From: a phage
Assembly: GCA_032691205.1 (NCBI GenBank)
Contig: GCA_032691205.1_4541.1
Direction: 5' to 3' (one strand)
DNA: 64,000 nt
Below the pieces are notes generated by a model, which worked only from the letters and a program-made list of their open reading frames with translations, did not search any database and was not told the origin of the DNA. The translations under genes were made by a program, and so were the position numbers. Below, in pieces: positions 45,929 through 64,000 of the stretch (position 1 is the first letter of the stretch; each line of letters starts with the position of its first letter).

Positions 45929-46723
45929 TTGAGCAAGTTGAACACACTTGATCAATATTACACTAACCCCGCTTATGCGGGGTTCTTATGTGATAAGATC
46001 AAAGAAATTTTTGGAGAGGAAGCTAACTACGTAGAACCATCTGCGGGAGAAGGAGCTTTCTCTTCTTGTTTTAAAAACATAACTTCTTTTGATATTGACC
46101 CTAAGTTTGAAGATTGTATTGAGGCAGATTTTTTAGCTCAATCTGTTGAGTCTGTTGGTAGTGTAACTGCTTTTGTCGGTAATCCTCCGTTTGGAAAAAA
46201 TGCTAGTCTTGCCATTAAGTTCTTTAACCATTGTGCTGAAATGTTGGATAACGAAGGTGGTATTTGTTTTATCTTGCCTCGCACATTTCAAAAAATCTTT
46301 TTTGCACACAAACTAAATCCCCACATGCATCTTCTTTACGAAGAAGAATGTCCAAAAGGATCTTTTATTCTTCATGGAGAACCTTGGGATGTTCCTTGTG
46401 TATTCCAGATATGGATTAAACGCAACGAGAAGCGTTCTCCCGTTGTTTTAGGAGAGAATCGACTATTCGTATTAGGTAACAGTAAAGACTACGATATAGC
46501 CGTTAGGAGAGCGGGAGCAAGTGCAGGTAAAGTGTTATCAGAAGAAGATTCTTTATCTGAAGCATCTACCTATTTTTTAAAAGCCTTGACTTCTAATCTT
46601 AAAACGCGTATCATTGAGGCTTACCCGTTACTTAAAGCTGAAGCTAGTAAAACTGCGGGAGTAAGAAGTTTAAGTTTAAAAGAACTTCAGTGGGTTCTGG
46701 AGAACATTAGAAAGGAGGAATAG
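45929..46723 (+). CDS. DNA N6-adenine methyltransferase
   Basis: TTG start with RBS AAGGAGG; motif I VEPSAGEGAF, motif IV FVGNPPFG. Confidence 0.65.
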   Translation: MSKLNTLDQYYTNPAYAGFLCDKIKEIFGEEANYVEPSAGEGAFSSCFKNITSFDIDPKFEDCIEADFLAQSVESVGSVTAFVGNPPFGKNASLAIKFFNHCAEMLDNEGGICFILPRTFQKIFFAHKLNPHMHLLYEEECPKGSFILHGEPWDVPCVFQIWIKRNEKRSPVVLGENRLFVLGNSKDYDIAVRRAGASAGKVLSEEDSLSEASTYFLKALTSNLKTRIIEAYPLLKAEASKTAGVRSLSLKELQWVLENIRKEE

Positions 46724-49700
46724 TGAGTAAGTTTACATGGGATATTGAAGCAAACGGATTGTTGAATAATGACACTATTGATTATTTAGCTAGTCCTTAT
46801 CGTCTCAAAGACACATTTCAAATGCACTGTATTGTCTTAGAGAACCATGAAACAGGAGAAATAGTAGCTTTCCACGATGGCCCTAAATACATCTTTGATG
46901 GGCGTCCTTATGAAGAGTCAGATGGTAAATACACATATGTTCTTAAAGAGTATGTGGCGCAAGATTACACGCATTTTCAACTAAAAGATTTCCCAGACTT
47001 TATTAATCATGAAGGTTATTTTAAAGACAAGCCTGAATATCTGGTTGAAATGGCTGTGGCTCACAACGGTATCAACTACGACTGGTTGGCTACAAAACTG
47101 TTTTATGGATTAGATTACAGTGTTAAATATAATACGTGGGGCAAAAATAAGGTAAAACTTATTGACTCCTTGATTTTGAGTAAAGTGTTAAACCCAGATC
47201 GAAAGATTGAGGGCAAATCAGGACATAGCTTGGCAGCACTTTCTCGAAAGGCAGGGGGTGATGTAAAAATAGATTTCCGTAAAGAGATTCCAGAAGAAGA
47301 TCGATTTAAGACTTTTGCTGCTGATATGCTTTATTACTGTATCTATGACAACAAAGCCAATACGAGCGTATATAATTACCTTATGGAAGAGTGGGGTGAT
47401 TATGATAAATGGGAAGGTCCATTTGAACTTGAACAACGTGTAGCAGACATTATTACACGCCAGGAACACCGTGGGTTTGCTTTTAACATGAAGCAAGCAG
47501 AAGAGAACCTTGCTTTTTTGGATGCAGAAATGGAGCGTCTTCGTTTACTCGTTGAGCCTATTTTGCCACCTAAACCAGCAACAAAAGGTTATCTTAAGGC
47601 TTTTATTCCACCTAAGTTGCAAATTAAAAAGAACTTAGAGCCAACTAACCATATGATCAATTTTGCTAAGAAACATGATGGTCATTTGGAAGAGAGGGAT
47701 GGAGATTGGTGGTTAGTGATGTTGGGGAAAGAGTGGAAACTGCCAGTTGCAGCAGATGAGCCTTTGTGTGATCCTAATATCCCTGCAACATTGAACGATA
47801 CTACCCATATTAAAAACTGGCTTGTAGGATTAGGTTGGGTACCGTCTGAATATAAAGATAAAGACTTGACTCTTAAATCTGGCACCAAGATTAAAAAGAG
47901 CGAGGAAGAACTTCAGAAAGGTATTCGAGCTTACGTTGAGCAAACTCTATCTTCTAATTTTTGTCAGGATCGTTGTGATCATCTGGAGTGCACACCGGAA
48001 ACCTTGGAAAGGAAGATTCAAGAGCGTATAGCAAAAGGTAAAGGTCGCGGTCTTAAAGTATTGACTAACCCATGTTTTACCAAAGGTCAGGAAAAAGAAA
48101 TTTGTCCTAACCTGCAAGCTTTGGGTGAGAAATTTCCTTATGCTACACAGATTGTAGAATACTTAACGTATAAGCATCGTAGGAACTCTATTTTAGGCGG
48201 TGGTGCTGATTGGGAAGAAGACGAAGAAGATCAAGAATACAACAAAGGTTTCTTGGCAGCAGTTCGTGCAGATGGACGTATACCTACGCCAGCGGCTACA
48301 TGCGATGCAGCAACCTCTCGTATGAAGCATAGGTCTGTAGCTAATATTCCTCGTGTCACATCTTTGTTTGGATGGCAGATGCGTAACCTGTTTGGTGTAG
48401 AGGTTCCTAAATACTTCCAGATTGGTTATGACTTTGATTCATTAGAGGCGAAGATTGAGTCGCATTATACGTGGAGATATGATAATCCTGATCATGCTTA
48501 CTGTAATGCACTTCTGTTAGAAAAACCAAACGATGTGCATACTATGATGGCAAAACATATTACTGATATTATTGGACGTAAGTTTGAACGTGGTCCTGCT
48601 AAGAGCGTTAAATACGGTTGTGTACCTGTAGATAATACGGAAGTGTTAACAAGAACGGGTTGGAAGAAACGTAAAGATCTTTTTGTAGGGGATGAAGTTT
48701 TATCTTATAATACTCACACCGCTCTTTACGAATATACCCCTATTCTTAAGCTGTGGGACTATAACGATGCAGAAGTTGTCTCTCTCGGTAACAAGTGGTT
48801 CAAAGTAGAAGTTACTAACGATCATATGTGGATTAACGCACAGAGAAAAACTATGCGATCAGATGGTAACAATGTTAAGTATATGCAAGTGGAGCGTAGA
48901 TCTACAGAGGATTTAAACTCGGAGTCAAACATAATTGCAGCAGGGCGATCTGGTGTGGTGTCTACTCTAACAGTGGAAGAAGGTCGTTTCTTAGGCTGGC
49001 TTCTTTCGGATGGCTACTATAAGTGGTCTGGCAAAGCCAGAAATAAAGTAATGGGTATTACAGTCACGGTAGATCAAGATGAGAAAAAATTCTTAGAAGA
49101 AGCACGTGAGGCTGTGGGAGATATCTTCACATTTGACGAGTATGTATCTGGAACGATGCATTCATTACGTCCTAATAAGAGTCAGTTTAGGGAATTTTTG
49201 ACTAAATGTGGCGTTGAAGTGGGTCAAAATAAGCACGAAGTGGACTGGTCTACATTAATTGCTAATCAAGGTCAAGCTGTGTTGGAAGCATTCTTAGAGG
49301 CATTCTGGATGGCAGATGGTCATAAGCGTCCAAACGGCAGTTTTGTTATCCGTCAAAAGAAAGGTAAGATTAGCGACGCTGTTTCTTTGGCTATCAATAT
49401 GACAGGTAATATTGCGTATGGTTCTGTTCAAAAAGATGGCATGTTAACGTTGGCAATCAATAACGGACAAACTATTTCAGGACAGAGGTTGACAAAAGCT
49501 TTTTCACGAGTAACAGATGTATTCTGTATCTCAACCAAGAATGAATCTTTTGTTATGCGTCAGAATGGTTTTATCACGTTGACAGGTAACTGCACGTACG
49601 GCGCTCAAGCAGACAAGGTTGCTAAAACAATTGGTAGCGATAAATACACAGGTCAATTAGTGTTCGATGCTTTCTGGGAAGCTGCATTCCCACTGGCGCG

Positions 49701-50292
49701 TCTTAAAGAACGTTTAAACGATTTCTGGGTTAAGACTGGTAAACAGTATGTTTTGGGTATTGACGGTCGTAAGGTTCCTACTCGTTCTGCTCACGCGATT
49801 CTTAACTCTCTGTTCCAAAGTGGTGGGGTTATCTGTGCTAAACGTGCAATGGTTATTTATGACGATATGATCGAAGAAGAAGGACTAAGTGTTGACTTCT
49901 TTAAAGATGACTGGAAGAATAAAGACTTCGTGCAACAAATGATTGCATATCACGATGAAGCCCAGCTTGAAGTTTCTCGTAACCTTGTAGAATTTAAATG
50001 GTTTTCACCTGAATCATTAGGTTGGAAGAAAGTAGACGATCCTGAAGAACAAAAGAAAATTGATAAAGAATGCCTTGCTAAAGTCGAAGAATGGAAGCAT
50101 AATAAGGAAAAAGAGACAGGGCAAATTTGGGCTAACATTCATGAATCTCCCAAAGGTGGATGGTTTACAGCCTATAGTCGGGCAGGTGAACTTGCTGCCT
50201 TAGCTGTTACTAAGGCTGGAGAATTTTACAATCTTAATGTTCAGCTTACTGCCGGATATGATGTGGGTAATTCCTGGGCATCCTGTCATTGA
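46723..50292 (+). CDS. family A DNA polymerase with 3'-5' exonuclease, interrupted by an intein
   Basis: GTG start; N-terminus FTWDIEANGLL...HCIV resembles T7 gp5; motif B rebuilt as PAKSVKYG|CTYGAQADKVAKTIG after removing 48619-49590. Confidence 0.85.
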   Translation: MSKFTWDIEANGLLNNDTIDYLASPYRLKDTFQMHCIVLENHETGEIVAFHDGPKYIFDGRPYEESDGKYTYVLKEYVAQDYTHFQLKDFPDFINHEGYFKDKPEYLVEMAVAHNGINYDWLATKLFYGLDYSVKYNTWGKNKVKLIDSLILSKVLNPDRKIEGKSGHSLAALSRKAGGDVKIDFRKEIPEEDRFKTFAADMLYYCIYDNKANTSVYNYLMEEWGDYDKWEGPFELEQRVADIITRQEHRGFAFNMKQAEENLAFLDAEMERLRLLVEPILPPKPATKGYLKAFIPPKLQIKKNLEPTNHMINFAKKHDGHLEERDGDWWLVMLGKEWKLPVAADEPLCDPNIPATLNDTTHIKNWLVGLGWVPSEYKDKDLTLKSGTKIKKSEEELQKGIRAYVEQTLSSNFCQDRCDHLECTPETLERKIQERIAKGKGRGLKVLTNPCFTKGQEKEICPNLQALGEKFPYATQIVEYLTYKHRRNSILGGGADWEEDEEDQEYNKGFLAAVRADGRIPTPAATCDAATSRMKHRSVANIPRVTSLFGWQMRNLFGVEVPKYFQIGYDFDSLEAKIESHYTWRYDNPDHAYCNALLLEKPNDVHTMMAKHITDIIGRKFERGPAKSVKYGCVPVDNTEVLTRTGWKKRKDLFVGDEVLSYNTHTALYEYTPILKLWDYNDAEVVSLGNKWFKVEVTNDHMWINAQRKTMRSDGNNVKYMQVERRSTEDLNSESNIIAAGRSGVVSTLTVEEGRFLGWLLSDGYYKWSGKARNKVMGITVTVDQDEKKFLEEAREAVGDIFTFDEYVSGTMHSLRPNKSQFREFLTKCGVEVGQNKHEVDWSTLIANQGQAVLEAFLEAFWMADGHKRPNGSFVIRQKKGKISDAVSLAINMTGNIAYGSVQKDGMLTLAINNGQTISGQRLTKAFSRVTDVFCISTKNESFVMRQNGFITLTGNCTYGAQADKVAKTIGSDKYTGQLVFDAFWEAAFPLARLKERLNDFWVKTGKQYVLGIDGRKVPTRSAHAILNSLFQSGGVICAKRAMVIYDDMIEEEGLSVDFFKDDWKNKDFVQQMIAYHDEAQLEVSRNLVEFKWFSPESLGWKKVDDPEEQKKIDKECLAKVEEWKHNKEKETGQIWANIHESPKGGWFTAYSRAGELAALAVTKAGEFYNLNVQLTAGYDVGNSWASCH
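48619..49590 (+). mobile_element. intein with LAGLIDADG homing endonuclease, in the polymerase
   Basis: Starts CVPVDNTEVLTRTGWKK; LAGLIDADG motifs FLGWLLSDGYY and LEAFWMADGH; ends VMRQNGFITLTGN followed by +1 Cys. Confidence 0.75.
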
Positions 50293-51969: not shown

Positions 51970-52857
51970 ATGTCCGTAATTAATACTGAAACTGATCGTA
52001 AAGGCAAAACCGTAACTTATGCAACTGGTATCGTAGACTACGTTAAACTGGATAAATTCGCTGAACCTAAAACTTTTCATTGGGAAGGAAAAACGATTGT
52101 TTCAACTCACCGGGCTTCTCTTGTTCTGAAAGAGAAAGGTGCTAAACCAGATGAGAAAGGTGTTTGGATTTCTCTTGGTGATATTGAACTGAAAGAAGGT
52201 TATGAAAACCTGCAAGTTAAAGAAGGTGATAACTGGATCACTATTGAAAAAGGTGTAGAAGTAAGTATTGATATTGATCGCGTTGACAATAAAGGCGGTA
52301 AAACTTACTACAATACTAAAAAATCTCGTATTACAGTATTGTCTACCGATGGTGTTCAGAAGTCTAACAAATCTTCTGGCAATAAAGGTTCCAACGATGC
52401 TGCTCCTAAGCAACCCTATAAAAAACGTGATACTGTAGGTCTGGAAACTGGTCACGCAGTAAATGGTGCACTGGAACTGATTCGTAATGGTGTTAAAGGT
52501 GATGCTTTCGATATCGCTGGGGTTGTTCAATCTGCAACTGTCACGCTGAAATCGGAAATTGCTGAATCTCGTGGCGTTGATATTAATGACTATGATCTTG
52601 GGGCATCTGTTGGTCACGCTATCCTAAATGCTTGTAAAGACCATACCATTAAGACTGTATCTGTAGAAGATCTGATTGATTCTGCTCGTAAAGTTCTGGC
52701 TCTGTCTGATAAAGTTGCTGCTGCCATTCGTGGTTCCGCAGAACAACCTAAGAAAGAAGAGAAGAAAGAAGTTAAGAAGCCTGAACCACAACCAGAACCA
52801 ACTCCAAGTAATCAAGAAGAACCTCCAATGGACTTCGACGAAGATATTCCTTTTTGA
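51970..52857 (+). CDS. ssb: single-stranded DNA-binding protein
   Basis: 295 aa; Gly/Ser-rich linker and acidic tail PMDFDEDIPF, near-identical to the E. coli SSB tip MDFDDDIPF. Confidence 0.6.
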   Translation: MSVINTETDRKGKTVTYATGIVDYVKLDKFAEPKTFHWEGKTIVSTHRASLVLKEKGAKPDEKGVWISLGDIELKEGYENLQVKEGDNWITIEKGVEVSIDIDRVDNKGGKTYYNTKKSRITVLSTDGVQKSNKSSGNKGSNDAAPKQPYKKRDTVGLETGHAVNGALELIRNGVKGDAFDIAGVVQSATVTLKSEIAESRGVDINDYDLGASVGHAILNACKDHTIKTVSVEDLIDSARKVLALSDKVAAAIRGSAEQPKKEEKKEVKKPEPQPEPTPSNQEEPPMDFDEDIPF

Positions 52858-53285
52858 TCAGTAAGTTATGCTCGTGTTGTGGGGCTGAAAAGCCCCTCAA
52901 CATGTTCCAAGTAAGGAAGGCTTCTAAAGATGGCTATACGGCATCCTGTAAAGCTTGCTTAAAAGAACGTGACCGTATACGAGATCAAGACCCTAATCGT
53001 AAAGCAGCAAAAGAAAAGTATGTAAAGGGAAAAGGAAAGGATAAAGCAGACGCGGCTAAAAAACGTTGGCAAGAAAAGAATCCCAAGAAGCGTAGTGTTC
53101 ACGTTTTAGTTGGTAACGCACTCCGAGATGGAAAGTTAGTGAAACAACCTTGCCAAGTGTGTGGGTCTGTTGATGTTCATGCTCATCATTGTGATTATGA
53201 TAAACCACTAGATGTTCTATGGCTGTGTCCTCTGCACCATGAGGCTTGGCATCAAGAACATGGTGAAGGGTTGAACGCTGAATAA
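52854..53285 (+). CDS. HNH endonuclease
   Basis: CSCCG...CKAC Zn ribbon; CQVCGSVDVHAHHCDYDKPLDVLWLCPLHHEAWH. Confidence 0.6.
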   Translation: MISKLCSCCGAEKPLNMFQVRKASKDGYTASCKACLKERDRIRDQDPNRKAAKEKYVKGKGKDKADAAKKRWQEKNPKKRSVHVLVGNALRDGKLVKQPCQVCGSVDVHAHHCDYDKPLDVLWLCPLHHEAWHQEHGEGLNAE

Positions 53286-53290
53286 AAGAA

Positions 53291-53318
53291 AGGAGCCAAA
53301 TGGCTCCTTTTCTTATTT
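53291..53318. terminator. bidirectional terminator between convergent blocks
   Basis: AGGAGCC-AAAT-GGCTCCT with T-runs on both sides. Confidence 0.6.
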
Positions 53319-55985
53319 ATAACCCGAAGGGATGCTGTTGTAATCAGAAAGTTTTGTGCAATACCTGAAGAGGTAACTATTAGCTACTCCACCTAATGTG
53401 TTTGTTAATGTTGTTCCTGTTCCTGTAAGATTTGTGCATCCACTAAAGAAAGAAGATAATGCTCCACGTTTACCACAAACAGTTAACCCTGGGTTGTCAT
53501 TAAAGATCTTATTAAAATCTGTAAGTCCTAAACAACCTTGGAATGTAGCTGTTAAAGAGGTCACTTTCGTTGGAATATTATCAAACATTCCTGCTGGAAC
53601 TTCTGCAAGAGAGGTGCAATCTTTAAAGGTGTAAGAATATCTTGTAACTTTTGACAGATTCTTAAATAAATCTGAAGGAATAGATGTTAAAGATGTACAA
53701 CCTTCAAACGTGCTTGACATTGTTGTCATTGAAGGAAATAAAGCATCACTGAATAATCCTTCAGGGATAGCTGTCAAACTTGTGCAGCCAGAGAAGATAC
53801 CGCTTATAGATGTTCCGGTGTAAGATGTGTTACTAAAACAATCAGAAGTTATTCGTCTTAAGTTAGCACAACCTTTTAAGAATTGTGAGGCTGGGCTTGT
53901 AGAATAACTGATTCTATTACCGCCCCAAAGTTCTAAAAGACTTGGGTTTGCTTCCATAGACACTTCCACACTATTAACTACTGAAGCACTTGCAAATTCA
54001 ATAGCCAGTCTATATTCTCCTGCTGGATAACTATCCACTGTAGAGAAAGCTTTGTTTCTAAATATTACTTTACTTGAAGGAACTACAACGTCATCCACCT
54101 TAACTACAAAGTTAGCTGGTGTAACAGTACCCGATAAAGTTGGGAACGTAATTGCCCCATCTGCCGAGTGGTTGAAATATCCGTTTAGAACCGTTAAATT
54201 ACTACTCGGAGATGGAGCTAACTCCTTTCCCGCAACAGCATTCACTGTGAGATAAGAACTATCTTCGGCAGTTACCACACCTTGATAAGTTGCTCTACAA
54301 CCGATACGACAACCTCCATCAGCAACCGCTGTAATAACGCCTGTAACAGGGTCAACTGTTGCTACCGTAGGGTCATTAGAGAAATACTCAACAACCATAC
54401 CAGGTAAGCTTGCTGCTCCTGTTGGCGTTATTTCTGCTACCATTGTTTGTGTTGTTCCTACATCCATCGCAGATAAGCTAGGGGTGTAAACACTCAATGT
54501 TGAAGCATATCCTCCAGAGGTATCTGATAAAGTTGTTCCTTCAGCGTTTAAGGCTGTCATACCTGCATCAAAACCACCTTCTGCATGGAAAGTCATTAAA
54601 CCAGTAGATGATATTGTCATGTTTGCAGGGGCAGAAGAAGTGTATTTAATATTGAAAAGTTTACCTCCTCCTGGGCTAACAGAATGTGTCAACTGTTTAG
54701 TTCCACCTACAATACAAATTCCTAAAGAATCTGTAGTTAAGCCAGTTGCCAGAATATCACCCGTAATCACGGAGCTTGCTATTGGTGTGAATTTATTATA
54801 GTTTAGACCGCTATTGAACAGATACGAGGCTTTCCCATCTTTCCAAATACCGGAATAATACATATCTCCATTATAAACGAAAAAGGTTCCTTGATAACCT
54901 AATTGGTTAGTAACATCCATATTCAGCGTATGAACGCTTGTGAGCTTGTTTATATCCCAAGAACCCACTCCTTCAGGTTTAACTGGTTTTCCCACTTGGA
55001 GTGGATCTCCGCTCGCAGAATCATACCCCAAACCTAAGTTTGCAGTGTAGTTCTTACCAATAGCCCACAAGGAATTATTGATCCCAACGAAAAAAGAGTG
55101 GCGGCTTGGTGGAAACTTCCATGTTGAGAAACCTGCTGCAAAGGTATCCAGTTTAGTGTAGGTTGTTTCTGTATTAGACCTAACATATAAGTAGTTTACT
55201 GTACCCGTGCCACCGGAGGTATCTCCTACAACTATTGTCTGGGAAACTGTATTGATGTAATCTTTGACATACACTGTTTCAGTAGCGGATATCTTAGCAT
55301 TGACAAAAGCTGTTGTTGTGTTATTATTACCTGCTAAACCTTTACTAGCTCCACAAACACGCAAGGTTCCCACATTGTTGACATAAGAGCATTGGTTGTA
55401 ACCTGCATCAAAAGCAACTGCTGCACTTGTTATCTGACGAGGAGTAGAAACTTCGTTAGTAGTACTTGCACCTAAACTGCCTACTGTGTTTTGACCTGAT
55501 CCATAAAGAACACCACTATTCATTAACCAGAGAGTGTTGTTATATCCTCCCTTAACCTCTTTAAGATTAGCTAAAGAGATAGTCCCTGTTATTACAGATG
55601 GAAAGCTGGTCCAAGTAGTTACACATGCGTCCGTACCACCTGCTGCTATAGATCCTACCAACCCTGCTGTCAATCCTGAATATTGCCATCCCCCACTGTT
55701 AGTTTTAATAACAAAACAACGATCTGCGGTAAACACATCCGCTACTACAGTAGAAGCTAAATGGAAATTATTGAATCGTGCACTACGAGTTCCATCTGCA
55801 ATCTCACCAAAAAGGTTTGCGCCTTGAGTAAACAATCTACCATCATTAAGCAAAATTGCTAAACTACTGTTAGAATTACCAGCGTTATCTGGGTAATCTA
55901 AAGTAATTACTTTTTTAACAATACCTGCTGGCAGAGGAACGACACCAGTGCTGGTCATAATAGTAAATATTGGAATTGGAAACAT
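53313..55985 (-). CDS. tail fibre protein with RCC1-like repeats, Big_2 domain and BspA-type leucine-rich repeats
   Basis: 890 aa; GxNxxGxLG-like repeats (YGSGQNTVGSLG, LWAIGKNYTANLGLG), Ig-like segment VATVDPVTGVITAVADGG, C-terminal FxGCxxLxxIP repeats. Confidence 0.6.
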   Translation of the reverse strand: MFPIPIFTIMTSTGVVPLPAGIVKKVITLDYPDNAGNSNSSLAILLNDGRLFTQGANLFGEIADGTRSARFNNFHLASTVVADVFTADRCFVIKTNSGGWQYSGLTAGLVGSIAAGGTDACVTTWTSFPSVITGTISLANLKEVKGGYNNTLWLMNSGVLYGSGQNTVGSLGASTTNEVSTPRQITSAAVAFDAGYNQCSYVNNVGTLRVCGASKGLAGNNNTTTAFVNAKISATETVYVKDYINTVSQTIVVGDTSGGTGTVNYLYVRSNTETTYTKLDTFAAGFSTWKFPPSRHSFFVGINNSLWAIGKNYTANLGLGYDSASGDPLQVGKPVKPEGVGSWDINKLTSVHTLNMDVTNQLGYQGTFFVYNGDMYYSGIWKDGKASYLFNSGLNYNKFTPIASSVITGDILATGLTTDSLGICIVGGTKQLTHSVSPGGGKLFNIKYTSSAPANMTISSTGLMTFHAEGGFDAGMTALNAEGTTLSDTSGGYASTLSVYTPSLSAMDVGTTQTMVAEITPTGAASLPGMVVEYFSNDPTVATVDPVTGVITAVADGGCRIGCRATYQGVVTAEDSSYLTVNAVAGKELAPSPSSNLTVLNGYFNHSADGAITFPTLSGTVTPANFVVKVDDVVVPSSKVIFRNKAFSTVDSYPAGEYRLAIEFASASVVNSVEVSMEANPSLLELWGGNRISYSTSPASQFLKGCANLRRITSDCFSNTSYTGTSISGIFSGCTSLTAIPEGLFSDALFPSMTTMSSTFEGCTSLTSIPSDLFKNLSKVTRYSYTFKDCTSLAEVPAGMFDNIPTKVTSLTATFQGCLGLTDFNKIFNDNPGLTVCGKRGALSSFFSGCTNLTGTGTTLTNTLGGVANSYLFRYCTKLSDYNSIPSGYK

Positions 55986-55995
55986 TTAAACCCTC

Positions 55996-56023
55996 CATAA
56001 AAAGAAAGCCCCTTTCGGGGCTT
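55996..56023 (-). terminator. rho-independent terminator
   Basis: AAGCCCC-TTTC-GGGGCTT followed on the minus strand by TTTCTTTT. Confidence 0.55.
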
Positions 56024-56026
56024 CTG

Positions 56027-58051
56027 TTATCGTGTTACAACAACCATGTCCACGATATCACCCACACCAGGATACGTTAATTGCAAAATTGTTACTGCGT
56101 TAGCAGTAGTTGCTATTTCTGTATCATTTAGTGCTCCATAAGACGCATCTAGTGTAACCGTGTGCCCCGTTGTATCTTGAATCAAATAAATCATTGCTGA
56201 AAACGCTTTAGGTTTTGTAGAGCCAGTGACACCAGGCCATGCTCCAACTGTCAGAGCGTCAGTTACTGTAACAACATACATATTGGAAGTTCCAGAAGGA
56301 GTCCAAGATGCTCCAGAGTTGGCAGTAGTTGTTTCAAGTTCCATGAAACCTGCTGTAACTCTAGTTGGTGTTATAGCTTCCGTAGGATCTGATCCTGATA
56401 GTTCGATCCAGTTTCCATCAGAACGACCATACGTCAAGCCGTCTTGAGGGGCTTCTGGTATACTAGGAAGAGTTCCTATAAGTGTCCATGTAGAAGAATC
56501 TGTTTTCTTAAACACTGCTCCAGTGTTAGTATTGAAGGCGTAATCATTGATAACACCGTCTCCTGCGACTGGATTAGTTGTTGCTACAAACCACTGTGCG
56601 CCGTCCTTACCGTTGGTCCCATCAGTACCGTTGGTTCCGTTTGTTCCAGGATCACCCTTATCACCTTTGTCACCCTTCTCACCTTTGTCACCTTTAATAC
56701 TTCCCATGTCAACAAAAGATGCGGAATTGGTGTCTTGATCGTAAGTATAGATGTAAAGATTACTAGTGTCTTCAGTTAAGTAAGCATCACCATAGTTATT
56801 GTAAACAGGGAGAGCTTCACTGTTCGGAACATGACCTTTAGCTGTAATTGATGTTCCTCCAAGACTGCCAACATTCATCCATTCCGTAGCATCTTGAACC
56901 CAAACATACAAATCATTATTAATTTTATATGCATCGCCTACTTCTCCAGTAGGAGGAAGTTCAGCTTCACTGTTCAGAACCCCGATAATCTCTAAGCCTG
57001 ATCCTGTTGCACCCACTGGTCCTTGTGGACCTAGTTCACCTTGTGGACCTCGCTCTCCTTGATCACCCTTGTCCCCTTTTGGACCTTTAAGTGAGGCAAT
57101 AAAATCTACTTCTGTCCCTTCATTACCAGCATCCAGCCAACTTTGATATGCAGATTTCCCTTCATCTCCATCTGTTCCATCAAGACCGTCTTTACCTGCC
57201 TCACCTTGTGGACCTTGAGGACCAACAATATTACCCATGTTGACCCAAGCTGTCCCGTTAGAGACATAAAGATTACCATTGATAGAATAAGCTTGGCTTA
57301 CGTTTTCAGAGTTAGGTTGTGGTAAGTTACTTGTAGAAGGCAAATCCCCACGATAATCAAAACCGTTGGCGTTAACACCAGGTGCTCCCTGTGGCCCTGT
57401 AGGACCAACATCACCTTTATCACCTTTTATAGAGGTAAGAAAATCATAAACAGATCCTGTATTACCATCTGCCAACCATACCTCATAAGCTGATTTCCCT
57501 TCTGGTCCAAGAGAAGAAATAAGTTTCCAAACAGAACCATCCCAAGCGTAGATTACATCACCTACGATATAACCATCCCCTGCAACGTTACCTGTGGATG
57601 GTAGTTCACTAGTGCTTGCTAATGATCCTTTAATATTAAGTTGAGCACCAGTATCCCCTTTCAAAGAAGCAAGCCATTGTGCTTCTGTTCCAACAAAACC
57701 ATTATCAAGTGCGATCTGATAAGCCGATTTACCAGCTTCAGGTATTGTTTCCGACAGATCATCAATCTGTTGCTGCATTGCCGTAAACTTGGCATTGATA
57801 ATTGCTATATCATCAGCGGTCCCAACACTTTGCCATGCAAGGGAAGAAATACCACCTGTGGTGGCTGGCGTAGAGTTTGCTGGAACTACTTTAGGAAAAG
57901 TTCCTTTCCATTGGTAATAATTCCCTTCTGCTGCTAACAGCAAAACTTCACGGGAATTACGTAATGTAAAACCTGCCTCAAAGCTGCGACGTTTTCGATA
58001 AGTAGCTTCTACCAGATCGGCTATCGCACTATTAGGTCTTGTTAAATTCAT
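56027..58051 (-). CDS. collagen-like repeat tail fibre protein
   Basis: 674 aa; Gly-X-Y tracts (GPQGPQGEAGKDGLDGTDGDEG, GPKGDKGDQGERGPQGELGPQGPVG, GDKGEKGDKGDKGDPGTNGTNG) between KSAYQ..WL modules. Confidence 0.65.
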   Translation of the reverse strand: MNLTRPNSAIADLVEATYRKRRSFEAGFTLRNSREVLLLAAEGNYYQWKGTFPKVVPANSTPATTGGISSLAWQSVGTADDIAIINAKFTAMQQQIDDLSETIPEAGKSAYQIALDNGFVGTEAQWLASLKGDTGAQLNIKGSLASTSELPSTGNVAGDGYIVGDVIYAWDGSVWKLISSLGPEGKSAYEVWLADGNTGSVYDFLTSIKGDKGDVGPTGPQGAPGVNANGFDYRGDLPSTSNLPQPNSENVSQAYSINGNLYVSNGTAWVNMGNIVGPQGPQGEAGKDGLDGTDGDEGKSAYQSWLDAGNEGTEVDFIASLKGPKGDKGDQGERGPQGELGPQGPVGATGSGLEIIGVLNSEAELPPTGEVGDAYKINNDLYVWVQDATEWMNVGSLGGTSITAKGHVPNSEALPVYNNYGDAYLTEDTSNLYIYTYDQDTNSASFVDMGSIKGDKGEKGDKGDKGDPGTNGTNGTDGTNGKDGAQWFVATTNPVAGDGVINDYAFNTNTGAVFKKTDSSTWTLIGTLPSIPEAPQDGLTYGRSDGNWIELSGSDPTEAITPTRVTAGFMELETTTANSGASWTPSGTSNMYVVTVTDALTVGAWPGVTGSTKPKAFSAMIYLIQDTTGHTVTLDASYGALNDTEIATTANAVTILQLTYPGVGDIVDMVVVTR

Positions 58052-58077
58052 TTATCTCTCCTATCATTAGACCATTC

Positions 58078-58107
58078 TATTGGAAGAAGAGGGGGATTCC
58101 CCCCTCT
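58078..58107 (-). terminator. terminator-like hairpin
   Basis: GAGGGGGGA-TTC-CCCCCTC palindrome after the stop of 58114..61167. Confidence 0.35.
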
Positions 58108-58113
58108 ATTCCA

Positions 58114-61100
58114 TTAGGTTGTTGGCACATCTACTACTGGCGTTGGGCGAATAACCGCAGTATTACCTACAGAAACATTACTGGAATCATTAGGTATGGT
58201 TTTAATTCTAACTCCAGCACTTGTAGGCGTTACAATTGGATCTGCAATGTCTATTTTAACTGGGTTAGTCCACGTATCATTATCTTGATAAGGTGCACGA
58301 GTAATAACTGTGTCCAAATCTGCTCCACCTACGCCAGCACCAGGAATACGGATACGTGTCCCTGCTGACAGAGGATAATGATACAACCAAGAAGCATTTG
58401 TTGCTGTCCCGTTAGGAGTCAAGTTCTGTGTCAGGAAGGTATCTCCTGCCTGTGTAGCTCGAATACCGAAAGCTGGGATATCTGGAATATATGCCCCACT
58501 TGTTGTTACAAGGAAGAACGTATTATCCGCCTTGACTATCATATCACCTTTGTCAAACTCTTTCCCTGTTGGGAAATGCATTCCATCAATGTTTCGACTA
58601 GGATTAGGCTCTAAGTAATAAACTTTGCCCGTTGTCCCTACAATAGCTCCAATACCACCTGCGATATTGGTATACATATTAGCTTCAACATTACAGTTGA
58701 CACGATGAATATCCGAGTAACGGCAACGGCTCCACTGTGGACGACCAGTAACCATCGTCTTGCCATCTGGGTAACAGTTTACGTTAACCATTTCAAGAAC
58801 AGATTTTTCTCTACGGAAGAATCCATCATAAAATGTTCCTGGACCAGATTCAGGTTGACCAACACAATCGAAGATATTACAGGTGATGTTAGACATTGAA
58901 AGCCAAGAAGCTATACCGAACAACTGCAATGCAGCGCAACGAATATTTTCAAAGCTAACTCTGTTTTCATAACCTGGCCCAGCGGAAACTCCCGCAAAAA
59001 CACGCCCAGTTTTGGTGTGAATGTTACGAACAGAATAGTTAAAGCATGGGTTTGAAGGTCTACCCTGTGCCGGAACTACCGGATTACCCTCTTCGTCCAG
59101 AACTGCGTTAGTTCCCCACTCCAAATAAATCATACGGATATTACTTGCAAGTGTGCTACCGTCTGTTTTAGGCTCTCCATAAACACCGTCAATCGTAAAA
59201 TCTTTACTTCCATACATTACAACTGCGCCAGTTGCCAAACCTGTCCCAACAGATACGGTTTGATCTGGATCGCCATGAATGTTTTCGATAGAAATATTAC
59301 GACCAACTTCTACGTGGACAATCTGACGGCAACGTTTTGCAAAAACGTTACGAATTGTAATATTCTTGCAATATTGATCATCAGGGATTCCGTAACCATA
59401 TGGTCCTTTACCAGCTACACCGATACCGATACCCCAGTTGGACAGAGGAATAGGAGCGTTAGTCCCATCGATATTAGACAGGTAAATATTCTCAATCACA
59501 CAACCATCATCATAATGTTTATTGATGACGTTCAGTTCTATCGCATCACCTTGCATGTCCATGAAGGTAAGGTTACGGAAGACACCGCGTGTTACTGGTT
59601 CTCCTGTCCCTTGTTGAAGGATGCCATATAACCCGTTTTTAAAAGTACAATTATCAATTTCAAAAGTACCTGATATTGGGTTGCCTTGGAATACCAAGCT
59701 ACCAACTTGACCTGCGCGAGGAGCACCGTCCCACAAACAATCGAACATGCGCACAGCACCACCCCAATACATAACACGAGAGTTACGGAAAGTTGTGCCT
59801 TCTACTGTAGCATTCTGCACACGATAGTCGCGTTGACCACGGAACACACCACCACGCAAAGTGATACCTTGAATATCAAAAGAGCTTGTCGTGAAAGTCA
59901 TATCGCAACCGTAAGCATCGAGAATCTTACTTTTCGAAGCTTTTGCTGCTAACAGTGCCGCCTGGAAAGCTGCTTCTGGTGTGGTATAGGTAGTTGTATT
60001 GTTAGCAAATTCTGACAAGTAGACAACATCGAATAAATCGTTGTATGTTCCACCACGAGGGGTTAACAGTCCTTCCGTATTAGTTAGAACCCATGCGTTT
60101 GGACCTAATCCACCGCTTGTCTCTAATGTGTCAGAGGCCAAAATACTTTTTGGTAAACTTCCAGCCCAACGATAACGACCAGCACCACGTCCAATCGTCT
60201 GATTTTTAGCTGTCAGAGTTACATTATTACCAAAGCTTGTAGGCAAATGAACAAACTGTCCACGTTCAACAGCTAATGCAGAAAGATCTACAGATCCGCC
60301 AGAATAAGTCATTACTCCAGAAACAGACAAAGATGTTAAAGTCCCTGTGATGTTAGGAGGCAATGTGTAGGAAGATTGTGCTACTGGATCATACAGAGCT
60401 TTAATCCCTGTTAATGATTGACCCGCTGTTGCGTAAGCTACTTCATCATCCAACAAACCGTATTTACGAGCAATAGTTTGTAAAGGTACTTTATCCATGC
60501 TTTCTGTCAGTTCTTCAGTTTTTGTTTCTAAACTGACAAGACGGTTTTCTAAGTTAGGATCTGTATCTGCGGAAGCTACGATTTTACCAATATAGGCAAA
60601 AAGCTTGTTTGGCAGTCCTGTTGCAGGATCATGTCCCAAAGGTTCAGATAAAATGATTTTACTATCTTCTATGCGGAAAGCTTCTCCCAGAACCTGAATA
60701 ACACCATTGATTGTAACAATAGCACTATCAAAGATGTAGGGAGGACTGATTACTGTTTCATAACCAGTTGCACCAGAATATACCCAAGGGGTGACTTCTG
60801 TTGCTAGTTGTTCTGTCTTCAGTCCCCACAATACCCAGTTGTTATCTCCTACTGGAGTCCCTTGCATAGGAATTGGGTTTACCAGTGTAGCATTAGGCGC
60901 ATAGTAATAACCACTCAACACTCCATTCTGGAAATAACGAAGTTGGTTAAAAACTGTTTCGTTTGTGCCTTGCGCCCAATCCAATGGGCTTTTAAAGAAA
61001 AAGTTGTCAACAAGGGCTTTTCTCAGGGTTGGTATCAACCCTGATTCTGTTTCAATACTCTCTGTAGCACTTCCATTAATAACATCATGGAGTTGGTTAG

Positions 61101-61167
61101 ATGAGAAAATAACCAGGTCTACGCCCTGTTCGAGAGACGTTGCTGGATATGTTGGGAATGTTGCCAT
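58114..61167 (-). CDS. tailspike/tail fibre with predicted right-handed beta-helix (possible depolymerase)
   Basis: 1017 aa; periodic N/G/V/I rungs (NCTFKNGLYGILQ, NITIRNVFAKRC, NISIENIHGD). Confidence 0.55.
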   Translation of the reverse strand: MATFPTYPATSLEQGVDLVIFSSNQLHDVINGSATESIETESGLIPTLRKALVDNFFFKSPLDWAQGTNETVFNQLRYFQNGVLSGYYYAPNATLVNPIPMQGTPVGDNNWVLWGLKTEQLATEVTPWVYSGATGYETVISPPYIFDSAIVTINGVIQVLGEAFRIEDSKIILSEPLGHDPATGLPNKLFAYIGKIVASADTDPNLENRLVSLETKTEELTESMDKVPLQTIARKYGLLDDEVAYATAGQSLTGIKALYDPVAQSSYTLPPNITGTLTSLSVSGVMTYSGGSVDLSALAVERGQFVHLPTSFGNNVTLTAKNQTIGRGAGRYRWAGSLPKSILASDTLETSGGLGPNAWVLTNTEGLLTPRGGTYNDLFDVVYLSEFANNTTTYTTPEAAFQAALLAAKASKSKILDAYGCDMTFTTSSFDIQGITLRGGVFRGQRDYRVQNATVEGTTFRNSRVMYWGGAVRMFDCLWDGAPRAGQVGSLVFQGNPISGTFEIDNCTFKNGLYGILQQGTGEPVTRGVFRNLTFMDMQGDAIELNVINKHYDDGCVIENIYLSNIDGTNAPIPLSNWGIGIGVAGKGPYGYGIPDDQYCKNITIRNVFAKRCRQIVHVEVGRNISIENIHGDPDQTVSVGTGLATGAVVMYGSKDFTIDGVYGEPKTDGSTLASNIRMIYLEWGTNAVLDEEGNPVVPAQGRPSNPCFNYSVRNIHTKTGRVFAGVSAGPGYENRVSFENIRCAALQLFGIASWLSMSNITCNIFDCVGQPESGPGTFYDGFFRREKSVLEMVNVNCYPDGKTMVTGRPQWSRCRYSDIHRVNCNVEANMYTNIAGGIGAIVGTTGKVYYLEPNPSRNIDGMHFPTGKEFDKGDMIVKADNTFFLVTTSGAYIPDIPAFGIRATQAGDTFLTQNLTPNGTATNASWLYHYPLSAGTRIRIPGAGVGGADLDTVITRAPYQDNDTWTNPVKIDIADPIVTPTSAGVRIKTIPNDSSNVSVGNTAVIRPTPVVDVPTT

Positions 61168-61170
61168 TAA

Positions 61171-61506
61171 TTACCCCTTATTCTGTGTACGTTTAACTAT
61201 GTCATCTAGCATCATTTGGATAGTCGCATTCTTGAGGTCCATAATCTTTTCAATTTTTTGCTCAAGGGTGTTATTATTTGCCATTAATGTAGAGTTAATT
61301 TGATTTAGCATCTGGGTAAGTTCGGCTTTAGTTGCATAAGTTGATTCAACAAAGACCAACTTCTTCTCTAGCTCTCGACTTTTCTCCTCCATTTCCTCAA
61401 GATCAGAGCCGAATTTATCCATTTTTTGTTTGAAAAAGAACCAGATGACTCCGATTAAAGGGATTATTGCATCCTTTGCAAGTCCCCATGCTTCTTGAAA
61501 TTCCAT
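61171..61506 (-). CDS. hypothetical coiled-coil protein
   Basis: ORF 111 aa. Confidence 0.55.
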   Translation of the reverse strand: MEFQEAWGLAKDAIIPLIGVIWFFFKQKMDKFGSDLEEMEEKSRELEKKLVFVESTYATKAELTQMLNQINSTLMANNNTLEQKIEKIMDLKNATIQMMLDDIVKRTQNKG

Positions 61507-61515
61507 AGTGATCCC

Positions 61516-62061
61516 TTATTCTGTCGGTAATGTAGGCCAATCTATAGCGTAAGGATAGTCTTTTTGAAGCGGAACACGATTTAGTTTAACTACATAAACT
61601 TGAAGATTTTTAAGATAAGCTAATTCGTCTTCAGTAGCCATTTCTAAATCTTTAGCATACTGTAGAGGTGTTATAAGTGCTACCGCTGTTTCTTGTAAAG
61701 AGCGAATTTTTGCACTAGCTTGTGTCATCAACTCTTCACGGGAATACTCTTTATTCTTAAGAGTTAAGGTTTCTAAATCCAGAACCTTGTTCCTAATATC
61801 CTCAAAAGTATCTATGTTAAAGTCTACTTGTGCTATAGAAAGATCTTCAGGGCAAAGTAGTGTAGGATCAGTATTCCAAAACACAATACGTTTTTGATCA
61901 TCAAAAACGACTTTCATTTTATCGTTATTGAATTCTGTGCTACGTAAATCATACCAATCGTAACCTTGATCGCAACGAAGAAAAAGAATGTTCTCTGCTT
62001 CTACCAATTCTTTTAGTTCAGGGTCTTCAGGAATATATTTTTTAAAGTTTGTAAATATCAT
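61516..62061 (-). CDS. hypothetical protein
   Basis: ORF 181 aa. Confidence 0.6.
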   Translation of the reverse strand: MIFTNFKKYIPEDPELKELVEAENILFLRCDQGYDWYDLRSTEFNNDKMKVVFDDQKRIVFWNTDPTLLCPEDLSIAQVDFNIDTFEDIRNKVLDLETLTLKNKEYSREELMTQASAKIRSLQETAVALITPLQYAKDLEMATEDELAYLKNLQVYVVKLNRVPLQKDYPYAIDWPTLPTE

Positions 62062-63123
62062 TTAGCCTCCAATATCGTACCAGTTTCCGTTAACGTTGCG
62101 CTGGAGGCGTTTGAAGTAAACCCCACCGATGTTATCCGCAGAGCTACGTCCTGTTTCCTGTACGATAATACCAGAAAGAACATAACCAGAAGAACAGATA
62201 TAAGTCCAAGAAACCTCGTTCCCTGGTGGATAATACACACCTTGGCTAGTATAACGAATATCTCTTACAAAGGTTCCGTTAGCATAGTTGTAGTTATTTG
62301 TAATCTGACTTTGATGATTACTTTCTACATTGTTTATACGAGAAGAGAGGTTGTTGTTAACATTATTCAAGTTGTTTTGAACAGTGTTAATATTCGTCTG
62401 CAATGTGTTCTGAAGGGAAGTCAAACGAGAGTTCAGATAATCTAAACGAACTAAAGCATTCCCGTTAGAAGTGTCTTGTCCACTGTTTGATCTTGGATTA
62501 TCTATTAGAACATAACCTGCATCATATAAACGAACACCTGCCGATACACTACCTGTGCTAGGATTTCTACGATAGATGTAAAGCTGACCTCCGCTTTGAT
62601 ACTCGGCAGAAATCTCGCCATTCGTTTGTCCTGCAAAGTTTTTGAAGAACAGTGTTGCAGGATCTGTTGTGGAAGTACCGTTAACATAAACATCACCACC
62701 ATAAATAGCACCACCCGCATCACGTTTTACCAACACGTTTGGTGTTACTGTTGAACTAGTGGCATCCGTAATGTTTGCCGACAAGTGATTATGACTGTTA
62801 TCTTGAACCTGGATAGATAAAGTAACTTCTTTGTTACCGTTCCAAGTAGCTTCACCAGTAGCATCACCTGCCATTGTAATCTTAGTTCCCACTAAAGGCA
62901 AGTAGGTATTAGGTAAAGTTGGAAGAAAGTCATCCACCAAATAGCGAATCCATAAACCGATATTATTAAGAATCCAGTTCATTTCTTCGCAAGTCATGAT
63001 TTGACCATAATCCATACCAACTGTGCGGATGGTTTCTTTAGGTCTAATTTTGTTTGTGTTTAAAGTTCCTGGGAGCGTTACAGTTTGTGTAGCCCAGTCA
63101 GGATAATATATTGGCTTCGCCAT
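62062..63123 (-). CDS. tail fibre/baseplate-associated protein
   Basis: 353 aa; Asn/Thr-rich coiled segment NTLQTNINTVQNNLNNVNNNLSSRINNVESN. Confidence 0.5.
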   Translation of the reverse strand: MAKPIYYPDWATQTVTLPGTLNTNKIRPKETIRTVGMDYGQIMTCEEMNWILNNIGLWIRYLVDDFLPTLPNTYLPLVGTKITMAGDATGEATWNGNKEVTLSIQVQDNSHNHLSANITDATSSTVTPNVLVKRDAGGAIYGGDVYVNGTSTTDPATLFFKNFAGQTNGEISAEYQSGGQLYIYRRNPSTGSVSAGVRLYDAGYVLIDNPRSNSGQDTSNGNALVRLDYLNSRLTSLQNTLQTNINTVQNNLNNVNNNLSSRINNVESNHQSQITNNYNYANGTFVRDIRYTSQGVYYPPGNEVSWTYICSSGYVLSGIIVQETGRSSADNIGGVYFKRLQRNVNGNWYDIGG

Positions 63124-63132
63124 TTAAACTCC

Positions 63133-63762
63133 TTAATCTATTTGCTTGAGAAGCGTACACATGCGTCCTGTTTCATCCCCAGTAGATTCCATGTACAGGG
63201 AACCTAAACCACCAATACCATGAGGCGGTTTGGTAGCATAATAAGAACTAAAACCAAAAGCTGATCCTGCTTTTGCTCCAAGACGGTAGCTACTAATAAT
63301 AGGGAAAACACTTAGCAACTGCTCTAAAGCTTGATCAGATTGAAGACACAGGTTGTAGAAAAACACATCAAAGGTTTTATTCAAACCTACGTAAGTATTA
63401 AGCGTTTCACGCTCTGTTCCTGTGAAACGGGCGAAGATATCAATTATGTCACCACGAGTCCCCGATGAGGCTACGCGGTAAGCCCTGATTTTTAATATTG
63501 TTCTATACTCTTCATCATCAGAGCCATTACGTTCGATCCCCATTTCTTCCCCTAGAATATCTAGGTATTTGCCTGTGGCTGTAGAGATCAAGCGGTGTTT
63601 AGCAAGATAGATCATTGCCTGATCTATCTTTTGCTTTTCACTGGATACGATGTAGAGGAGCTTGACAATGTTAGGAGAAGATTTAAAATCTTCAATCAGA
63701 AGGTTTTTAACATCTTCATTGATACTGGCCCAAGTTGTTACATGGTCAACACTCACTGCCAT
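63133..63762 (-). CDS. hypothetical structural protein
   Basis: ORF 209 aa in the structural block. Confidence 0.55.
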   Translation of the reverse strand: MAVSVDHVTTWASINEDVKNLLIEDFKSSPNIVKLLYIVSSEKQKIDQAMIYLAKHRLISTATGKYLDILGEEMGIERNGSDDEEYRTILKIRAYRVASSGTRGDIIDIFARFTGTERETLNTYVGLNKTFDVFFYNLCLQSDQALEQLLSVFPIISSYRLGAKAGSAFGFSSYYATKPPHGIGGLGSLYMESTGDETGRMCTLLKQID

Positions 63763-63764
63763 TT

Positions 63765-64000
63765 TTACACTCCATACTCGTAAGAAATGTTATCAAGGTC
63801 AAAAGAAGGGACAACATTATAAGCAGGAACTATATTATTCTCTGTATATTTACTGTCATCCTCAGTATTAAGTTTAACATAAACACGAAGAGAAGTCAAG
63901 CGTCCAAAAGCAAGTGCTGCATAAATAACACCTTTGATTTGATCGTTCGTTACTGAAGAACCTAACTCAAAGTAAGCTTGCAGGTTTTGTAAAGCTTCTA
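63765..64000 (-). CDS. hypothetical protein (3' end only; gene continues beyond the window)
   Basis: Minus-strand frame open from stop at 63765-63767 to the window edge, checked codon by codon. Confidence 0.45.
   Translation of the reverse strand, partial: EALQNLQAYFELGSSVTNDQIKGVIYAALAFGRLTSLRVYVKLNTEDDSKYTENNIVPAYNVVPSFDLDNISYEYGV

Follow-up and report, generated by a model that had tools for sequence, protein, structure and literature searches.

The 64,000-nucleotide (nt) stretch of phage DNA analysed here (contig GCA_032691205.1_4541.1 of NCBI GenBank assembly GCA_032691205.1), which we refer to as the window, carries two adjacent genes of the phage adsorption apparatus on its minus strand. 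Here we denote them gene B (58114..61167), encoding 1017 amino acids (aa), and gene A (56027..58051), encoding 674 aa. Their products are very probably virion-borne receptor-binding proteins, B a colanic-acid hydrolase spike (colanidase tailspike) and A a long collagen-like fibre. Both open reading frames (ORFs), with the coordinates given for two fibre genes in a first-pass annotation of this DNA, proved exact, and they are followed on the same strand by a third consecutive ORF, gene C (53313..55985, 890 aa). The coding sequences annotated in phage ESCO5 have the same lengths and the same order as the fibre genes of the window.

Using megablast, we found 97-98% nucleotide identity over 10,450 nt to AV125, ESCO5 and many other Phapecoctavirus members, and 69 phage genomes covered at least 80% of the region 53313-63762. 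Phage phAPEC8 aligned to this region at 98.7%, except for the first 922 nt of the region. Since identity to AV125, ESCO5 and phAPEC8 is about 98% and the gene order is that of ESCO5, nucleotide identity and synteny together assign the window to a phAPEC8-like E. coli myophage of the genus Phapecoctavirus, subfamily Stephanstirmvirinae. The two genes have the order and lengths of their counterparts in phAPEC8 and ESCO5 (gp228/gp227 in ESCO5), labelled in phAPEC8 as 'putative colanic acid-degrading protein' and 'tail fiber protein'. The window differs materially from phAPEC8 only in having the ESCO5/AV125 allele of gene C, and its fibre cluster is syntenic with those of phi92-like and rV5-like phages.

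Gene B: probable colanidase module and predicted virion anchor

The product of gene B is 100% identical in aa sequence to the phAPEC8 'putative colanic acid-degrading protein', is at least 99% identical in 61 phage records and matches phrog_6117 ('colanic acid degradation') with an E value of 1e-282. The category of that family, 'moron/auxiliary', would make B a defence or moron gene, a reading that we rejected in view of the virion anchor and tailspike architecture described below.

The beta-helix colanidase module occupies residues 372-1000 (58168..60054, minus strand), of which residues 426-1000 match PDB 6E0V, the colanidase gp150 of phage phi92 (phmmer E 1.4e-79). In an AlphaFold2 model of B built from 39 homologues, the predicted local distance difference test (pLDDT) score was about 85-97 over residues 400-680. 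The top Foldseek match of the model was again 6E0V (E 1.2e-35, template modelling (TM) score 0.67 normalised to the target), followed by the beta-helix tailspikes CBA120 TSP1-4, Sf6 and HK620 and then by PL6 lyases. The 'beta-helix' protein of the first-pass annotation was hence recovered both from sequence and from fold, as a right-handed parallel beta-helix homologous to the full length of gp150. The Pfam search itself gave B only Tail_spike_N at residues 302-361 (37.6 bits, cut-off 25) and a sub-threshold Beta_helix (E 0.0094), while the names PF27800 (phage colanidase tailspike, listed for a protein identical to B) and PF26208 (see below) come from precomputed annotations. In NCBIfam, residues 502-662 match WcaM (E 1e-25) with 90 bits against an equivalog cut-off of 808. 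As this score lies far under the cut-off, the match indicates homology and not orthology, E. coli WcaM being a cellular, non-virion beta-helix protein of which B is only a homologue.

B was also aligned with seven homologues from podoviruses, PVP-SE1, phi92-like phages, jumbo phages and an Ackermannviridae phage. Seven residues, D537, D541, E544, N546, Q615, H618 and E620, were invariant in the 8 homologues, which come from six phage groups, on successive rungs and down to 26% identity. This would be the pattern expected of a retained active site, and its mapping onto the gp150 site is putative. Colanic acid is the Rcs-induced slime exopolysaccharide common to E. coli and its relatives. The near-invariance of B across 61 genomes fits a target that is the same from host to host, and the predicted target of B is most likely this exopolysaccharide, not a serotype-specific K capsule. 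For phi92 gp150, hydrolysis of the beta-1,4 Glc-Fuc bond of colanic acid was reported by Xu et al. 2025, in the form in which that work is cited in PMC13450770. Homology to this colanidase and the WcaM match bear out the earlier proposal of a depolymerase candidate, for which 'candidate' is still the right wording. Our literature search found no paper tying the phAPEC8 tail to colanic acid.

In phi92 (Justusliebigvirus), gp150 (6E0V/6E0W) and the gp151-type fibre occupy the same cluster slot, with the same beta-helix fold. Outside the subfamily, the nearest catalytic modules are those of podovirus 'tailspike colanidases', with 49% identity over 620 residues. The Bonnellvirus mellemsur/J8-65-type 'tailspike colanidase' and the colanic acid-degrading protein of phage NST1 have a catalytic module like that of B, although the Bonnellvirus-type enzyme has another N-terminal adaptor and is the sole spike of a 40-kb podovirus. 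The colanidase gp49 of PVP-SE1 (L004 970-3108) starts with the TD-like motif YQWTGAYPKLVPADSTPETTGG and not with the PF26208 anchor. The same enzyme module is thus mounted by different adaptors across phage groups.

At 99.7-100% identity, B is also found in records named Acinetobacter phage ABPW7, Klebsiella phage ZCKP1 and 'Dompiswa phage', and the 'Campylobacter phage' A145 has a phi92-like copy about 33% identical to B. All four records are coliphage-type genomes, and their host labels appear doubtful.

Residues 1-119 of B (60811..61167, minus strand) form a predicted virion anchor, the N-terminal adaptor of a colanidase tailspike, by homology to PF26208 'Phage_phiTE_241_N'. Residues 13-119 gave a profile match (E 1.5e-25) to residues 16-125 of 9CUY chain g, the 793-aa 'putative tail fiber protein' of Pectobacterium phage phiTE, and a separate AlphaFold2 model of residues 1-205 matched the phiTE fibre chains in Foldseek (9cuy_i, E 3.6e-9). 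In the cryo-electron microscopy (cryo-EM) structure of phiTE, the N-terminus of the long tail fibre consists of a helical bundle and a globular domain, and contacts wedge 2A and the sheath-initiator helix (PMC11972413). By homology to phiTE, B would be mounted directly on the baseplate wedge. A large-database search found the N-terminal ~200 residues of B in 67 proteins, which measure 650-1330 aa, come from ~150-kb contigs and vary in their C-terminal modules (PF27800, PF27114, pectate-lyase, NosD, GDSL lipase, S74 peptidase). Judged from these sequences, the N-terminus of B is a conserved socket-fitting anchor with exchangeable heads.

The anchor is followed by a small beta domain at residues 120-200 (60568..60810, minus strand), a candidate branching domain of the XD/gp10 kind. 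Its profile matches were 9k4a (residues 191-241, E 2e-10), 8vbx (1e-6), 23sh (2.4e-6), 8es4 (3.5e-6) and 7y22 'tail adaptor' (1.3e-4), and the podovirus fibre or adaptor stretches that it matched come after the tail-attachment domain. The match to residues 19-72 of CBA120 TSP2 was marginal (E 0.017), and CBA120 TSP4 1-335 (anchor and XD region) ranked third in the Foldseek search with the N-terminal model (E 3.8e-3). Against T4 gp10, hhalign gave a probability of 0.25% with a single-sequence template of low sensitivity, and Foldseek gave E 0.81 for 5iv5_AC. Since the hhalign comparison was negative, we do not call the domain 'gp10-like'.

A helical, coiled-coil-like linker (residues ~203-226, 60490..60561, minus strand; AlphaFold2 helices 206-225 and 227-235) leads to a tandem TD1-TD2 module at residues 226-370 (60058..60492, minus strand), which includes the Tail_spike_N match and is of the CBA120/G7C type. 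Its PDB matches were 4qnl (9e-30), 5w6f/6nw9 (3e-29), 4oj5 (6e-28) and 5w6h (9e-26), and it is homologous to that of CBA120 TSP1/3/4 and G7C gp63.1. In the alignment with the phi92-like homologue of phage PaulScherrer, to which residues 1-200 of B are 75% identical, TD1-TD2 had no counterpart. The phi92-like gp150 has 804 aa against the 1017 aa of B, whose extra ~170 residues are TD1-TD2 and the coiled coil. On the other hand, B differs from the CBA120 spikes in that its anchor is of the phiTE and not the TSP4 type, and in that the XD/gp10 similarity is marginal. Module by module, B thus reads as a mosaic in which the baseplate anchor is of the phiTE type, the small domain behind it is branching-like, TD1-TD2 is of the CBA120 type and the colanidase is nearest to podovirus enzymes.

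Gene A: collagen-like fibre and the split lateral fibre

The product of gene A matches phrog_15437 ('tail fiber protein') with E 0 over residues 1-674. Over its whole length it shares 60% identity with a PaulScherrer protein annotated as 'lateral tail fiber protein with type I collagen domain', so that its homology to the collagen-like tail fibre family is full-length. It is of the phi92 gp151 type, and its counterpart in PMC12695924 is 'TfpM2'. The variation of A inside the genus is moderate, with at least 99% identity in 35 records, 95-99% in 14 and 90-95% in 16.

Residues 12-77 (57821..58018, minus strand) form a single TD-like domain, presumed to serve for attachment, which matches Pfam Tail_spike_N (PF18668; E 1.7e-19, 70.1 bits, cut-off 25) and, in the PDB, 9vvr (1.9e-13), 9occ, 5w6h and residues 102-158 of 4oj5. 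The N-terminal domain is also 56% identical to one stretch of K1F gp17. After a heptad-like stretch at residues 78-104, read off the sequence, comes the shaft at residues 105-527 (56471..57739, minus strand), with three 'GKSAY' motifs (residues 107, 185 and 298), five beta units and four collagen runs. The five beta units, each of about 45 residues, were delimited by motif and MAFFT alignment only, and a BLAST comparison of A with itself revealed no significant internal repeat.

The collagen runs are uninterrupted G-X-Y repeats of 16-31 residues, long enough for a triple helix, at residues 210-225, 277-298, 323-350 and 454-484 (57377-57424, 57158-57223, 57002-57085 and 56600-56692, minus strand), with 6, 8, 10 and 11 glycines, respectively. 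In the DNA they are 9/18-nt tandem repeats. Pfam Collagen scored 46.4 bits against a cut-off of 27.2, while the matches to NCBIfam collagen-like adhesins stayed below cut-off. The earlier description of A as collagen-like therefore holds on the four runs, the Pfam score and the tandem DNA repeats. In the phi92-like relative, the collagen runs are shorter than those of A.

At residues 528-552 (56396..56470, minus strand) lies a foldon-like trimerisation hairpin, IPEAPQDGLTYGRSDGNWIEL, which is 13/22 identical to the T4 fibritin foldon and had PDB fibritin/foldon matches with E 0.0016-0.08. The distal tip, presumed to be the receptor-binding end, covers residues 558-674 (56030..56380, minus strand) and matches positions 751-868 of phrog_4549 and residues 683-790 of the phiTE fibre 9cuy_g (E 1.5e-8).

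The relation between the two genes becomes clearer from the rV5-like phages. There, the same slot, after the short fibre, the chaperone and a small ORF and before an 'intimin-domain' fibre, is filled by a single 581-aa protein, the lateral fibre of JeffSchatz (bas55_0040). Its N-terminus corresponds to B 10-114 (46% identity, E 2e-24) and its C-terminus to A 570-674 (51% identity, E 5e-27). The phiTE fibre (gp241, 9cuy_g) is built alike, its N-terminus matching B and its C-terminus matching A. These alignments indicate that the one anchored fibre of Vequintavirus/phiTE corresponds to two adjacent genes here, in which the anchor bears an enzyme, and a collagen shaft that starts with a TD-like domain bears the old tip. 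The phiTE/rV5-like fibre is one polypeptide with a plain shaft, whereas here the depolymerase stands after the anchor and the collagen shaft before the tip.

In Ackermannviridae, the N-terminal TD1 of a side-branch spike docks on XD3 of a hub spike (Ackermannviridae review). The side-branch spikes TSP1 and TSP3 of CBA120 start with a TD domain, and A likewise starts with a TD-like one, although the CBA120 branches are beta-helix spikes, A is a collagen-like fibre and the docking of A on B is putative. Because of the split fibre, the TD-like start of A and the Ackermannviridae docking, we consider that A might hang on residues 120-200 of B via its TD-like N-terminus, in a branched A-B complex derived from the split lateral fibre. 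On this reading, B would have retained the baseplate anchor and acquired a docking domain, TD1-TD2 and a colanidase head, and A would have kept the former receptor-binding tip. The comparison with the rV5/phiTE single polypeptide suggests such a mounting of A on B as a branch; for the whole complex our expectation is tentative, and well short of an even chance. The attachment site of A is most likely a gp10/XD-type docking domain, for which B 120-200 is the nearest candidate. We checked co-occurrence in a very small sample, and the outcome was mixed: a relative whose anchor protein has no 120-200 domain also has no downstream fibre gene, and in a metagenomic relative that has the domain a fibre gene does follow, though its product lacks a TD-like N-terminus.

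Adsorption apparatus and alternative readings

Members of Stephanstirmvirinae have several fibre and spike sets with glycan-hydrolysing domains, published as a 'nanosized Swiss army knife' (PMC8594841, PMC10844046). That the fibre genes form a multi-receptor or capsule-degrading adsorption apparatus, as first annotated, is supported by the Phapecoctavirus locus, this published description and the gp150 homologue, with colanic acid as the predicted target. A, B, C and the short fibre at 62062-63123 together make up this apparatus, and the earlier reading coincides in essence with how the field sees these phages.

In the mechanism that we infer, which extends to the activity and substrate of B, the baseplate position, the trimeric state and the receptor and attachment site of A, B trimers would sit at the wedge periphery, where the beta-helix glycoside hydrolase would cut colanic acid and let the particle tunnel through mucoid layers. 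With colanic acid cleared, the other fibres could reach cell-surface receptors. A would be a long trimeric fibre made of the TD-like attachment domain, a short coiled coil, the collagen and beta-unit shaft, the foldon-like clamp and the tip. Its collagen triple helix would comprise 97 residues, or about 28 nm by the standard rise per residue. The 115-residue distal tip would bind a conserved surface structure, and A would attach through its TD-like domain, possibly onto B. In comparison, C is probably a variable, strain-specific element, while B is nearly invariant.

Several points weigh against this scheme. The receptors named for the subfamily are enterobacterial common antigen (ECA) or the N4 glycan receptor (NGR) and the first outer-core glucose of lipopolysaccharide (LPS) (PMC8594841, bioRxiv 10.64898/2026.04.02.716166), and genetic screens identify ECA/NGR and the LPS core, and not colanic acid, as what relatives use for primary adsorption. 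Because the screens point there, B is probably an accessory barrier-remover, not an essential receptor binder. The same two sources describe the gene-to-fibre assignment in the subfamily as unclear. A 2026 cryo-EM study of phi92 identified fibre III as the short fibre and inferred fibre I to be the endosialidase, but fitted neither gp150 nor gp151 in any fibre density and left fibre II unassigned, so the virion position of A and B rests on homology to phiTE. We found no virion mass spectrometry for Phapecoctavirus, the O177 'genomics and proteomics' paper being in silico only. Lastly, the catalytic module of B is only 33% identical to the phi92-like enzyme, and B is a candidate colanidase by analogy with that homologue.

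This low identity to the assayed phi92 gp150 would also fit a B that depolymerises another polysaccharide (K or O antigen, ECA or NGR) and took its 'colanic acid' label from distant homologues, as would the use of the beta-helix scaffold by enzymes of many specificities and a WcaM score far under the equivalog cut-off. We consider this unlikely, since the 6E0V match spans the entire module including its C-terminal domain, WcaM is itself encoded in the colanic-acid gene cluster, the family members aligned all retain the putative site residues and B, unlike C, barely varies in 61 phages from very different E. coli strains. The retained acidic and polar residues, and the activity reported for closely related family members, make it still less probable that B binds polysaccharide as a catalytically inactive protein, even though some tailspikes are binding-only and the activity of B rests on homology. 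Colanidase activity is thus the reading that we prefer for B. Phapecoctaviruses carrying B were isolated in a secondary selection on phage-resistant ST410 strains, including a colanic-acid-overproducing mutant, and AV125, the nearest relative of the window, infected the widest range of hosts within its collection.

A might instead belong to the head or neck, as a whisker of the fibritin kind or a capsid spike: its foldon-like motif recalls T4 fibritin, and the phi92 study reports that its AlphaFold3 model of gp151 is similar to gp52, the head spike of Pa223, and could be placed in no tail-fibre density. Likeness between repetitive trimeric shafts is weak evidence, and the N-terminal domain of A belongs to the tailspike TD family, its tip also occurs on phiTE/rV5-like fibres in which the same polypeptide has a baseplate anchor, and its gene lies within the fibre cluster beside baseplate genes; a position on the head or neck is therefore improbable, and we retain A as a tail fibre. 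It is much harder to decide whether A and B attach independently of each other, each having its own site on the baseplate or on another fibre (e.g. the arm of fibre I), with B 120-200 as only a spacer, and we rate this at roughly even odds. The Ackermannviridae review describes the receptor-binding proteins of Stephanstirmvirinae as 'each protruding the baseplate', no T4 gp10 similarity was detected by hhalign or Foldseek, the metagenomic relative with the 120-200 domain has the downstream fibre without a TD-like N-terminus, and phi92 has three fibre densities per wedge, fibre II being joined to the base of fibre I. Yet A has no PF26208 anchor while keeping the tip that is anchored in rV5-like/phiTE fibres, the order of anchor, small domain, TD1-TD2 and beta-helix in B is that of the CBA120 hub spikes, and the relative without the 120-200 domain lacks the downstream fibre gene.

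Neighbouring genes and implications

Gene C, known in the literature as 'TfpM1', combines an RCC1-like propeller, a Big_2 Ig domain and a weak BspA-type LRR_5 match, the last in a 306-aa allelic C-terminal cassette (53316-54233, minus strand). With C so built, the suggestion of three differently constructed fibres or spikes in a row was correct. Residues 1-584 of C are conserved, while residues 585-890 are replaced in phAPEC8 and many relatives, and the version in the window was found in 34 records only. The cassette is probably the strain-specific host-range determinant of the cluster.

Upstream of B are a small ORF, a tail fibre chaperone, a short fibre and a baseplate protein. The small ORF (61171..61506, minus strand) encodes a 111-aa protein with a hydrophobic N-terminal stretch (phrog_15210, PHROG label 'lipoprotein'). 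Phi92-like, rV5-like and metagenomic relatives also have an ORF of 104-114 aa in this slot, with the fibre chaperone on one side and the anchor-bearing fibre on the other, and the 111-aa protein may be an assembly factor for the anchored fibre. The tail fibre assembly chaperone (61516..62061, minus strand) matches Pfam Caudo_TAP (E 6.6e-13) and phrog_136, and the 353-aa short tail fibre (62062..63123, minus strand) is of the phi92 gp147/Mu gpS type (phrog_4465, E 3e-108). In ESCO5, a 921-aa endosialidase with an S74 chaperone, nearly identical to phi92 gp143 (PDB 4HIZ, E 0), is encoded at L001 21254-24019, past what corresponds to the right end of the window at 64000; AV125 is reported without the ESCO5-type endosialidase.

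Terminator-like hairpins lie behind all three fibre genes. That between A and C (56005..56024, minus strand) has the sequence GAAGCCCCGAAAGGGGCTTT followed by a T-run, that between B and A (58092..58104, minus strand) is weak, and that behind C (53288-53311) is bidirectional and lies between convergent genes. Terminator-like sites were modestly enriched (15 against 8.5 expected), and a scan for sigma-70 promoters gave no enrichment (27 found, 26.7 expected). Perhaps the fibre genes are separately attenuated transcription units. The gene convergent with C is a Cys/His-rich 143-aa ORF on the plus strand (52854-53285; CSCCG...CKAC...CQVCG...HHC...HH), which may encode an HNH or zinc-finger protein. 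Further away, a family-A DNA polymerase ORF (46723-50292, plus strand) has an insert with weak matches to Hint (residues 624-714, E 0.09) and LAGLIDADG (residues 854-873, E 0.08). Its PaulScherrer homologue is annotated as 'intein-containing DNA polymerase precursor', and the insert is probably an intein with a homing endonuclease.

Dozens of genomes already carry annotated versions of A and B, and the enzymes of this family have been characterised, so both genes are ordinary for this phage group and their novelty is low. What we add is the module map of B, the equation of its anchor with the structurally resolved attachment of the phiTE fibre, and the split-fibre relation of A and B. The anchor homology and the split-fibre relation provide a concrete, testable gene assignment for phi92/phAPEC8-type baseplates. 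Phapecoctaviruses, whose host ranges are among the broadest of coliphages, serve in cocktails for therapy and biocontrol (PMC10844046). Bacteria that overproduce colanic acid can thereby become broadly resistant to phages, as has been documented (PMC12753057). A colanidase carried on the virion is therefore of practical relevance, since it bears on the choice of phages against mucoid escape mutants and could itself be put to use as a ready-made enzyme. If the branched complex is true, it would link the 'fibre II' region of phi92-type baseplates to its genes, and would extend the 'anchor-branch' design of Ackermannviridae and podoviruses to Stephanstirmvirinae, with a collagen-like fibre as the branch.

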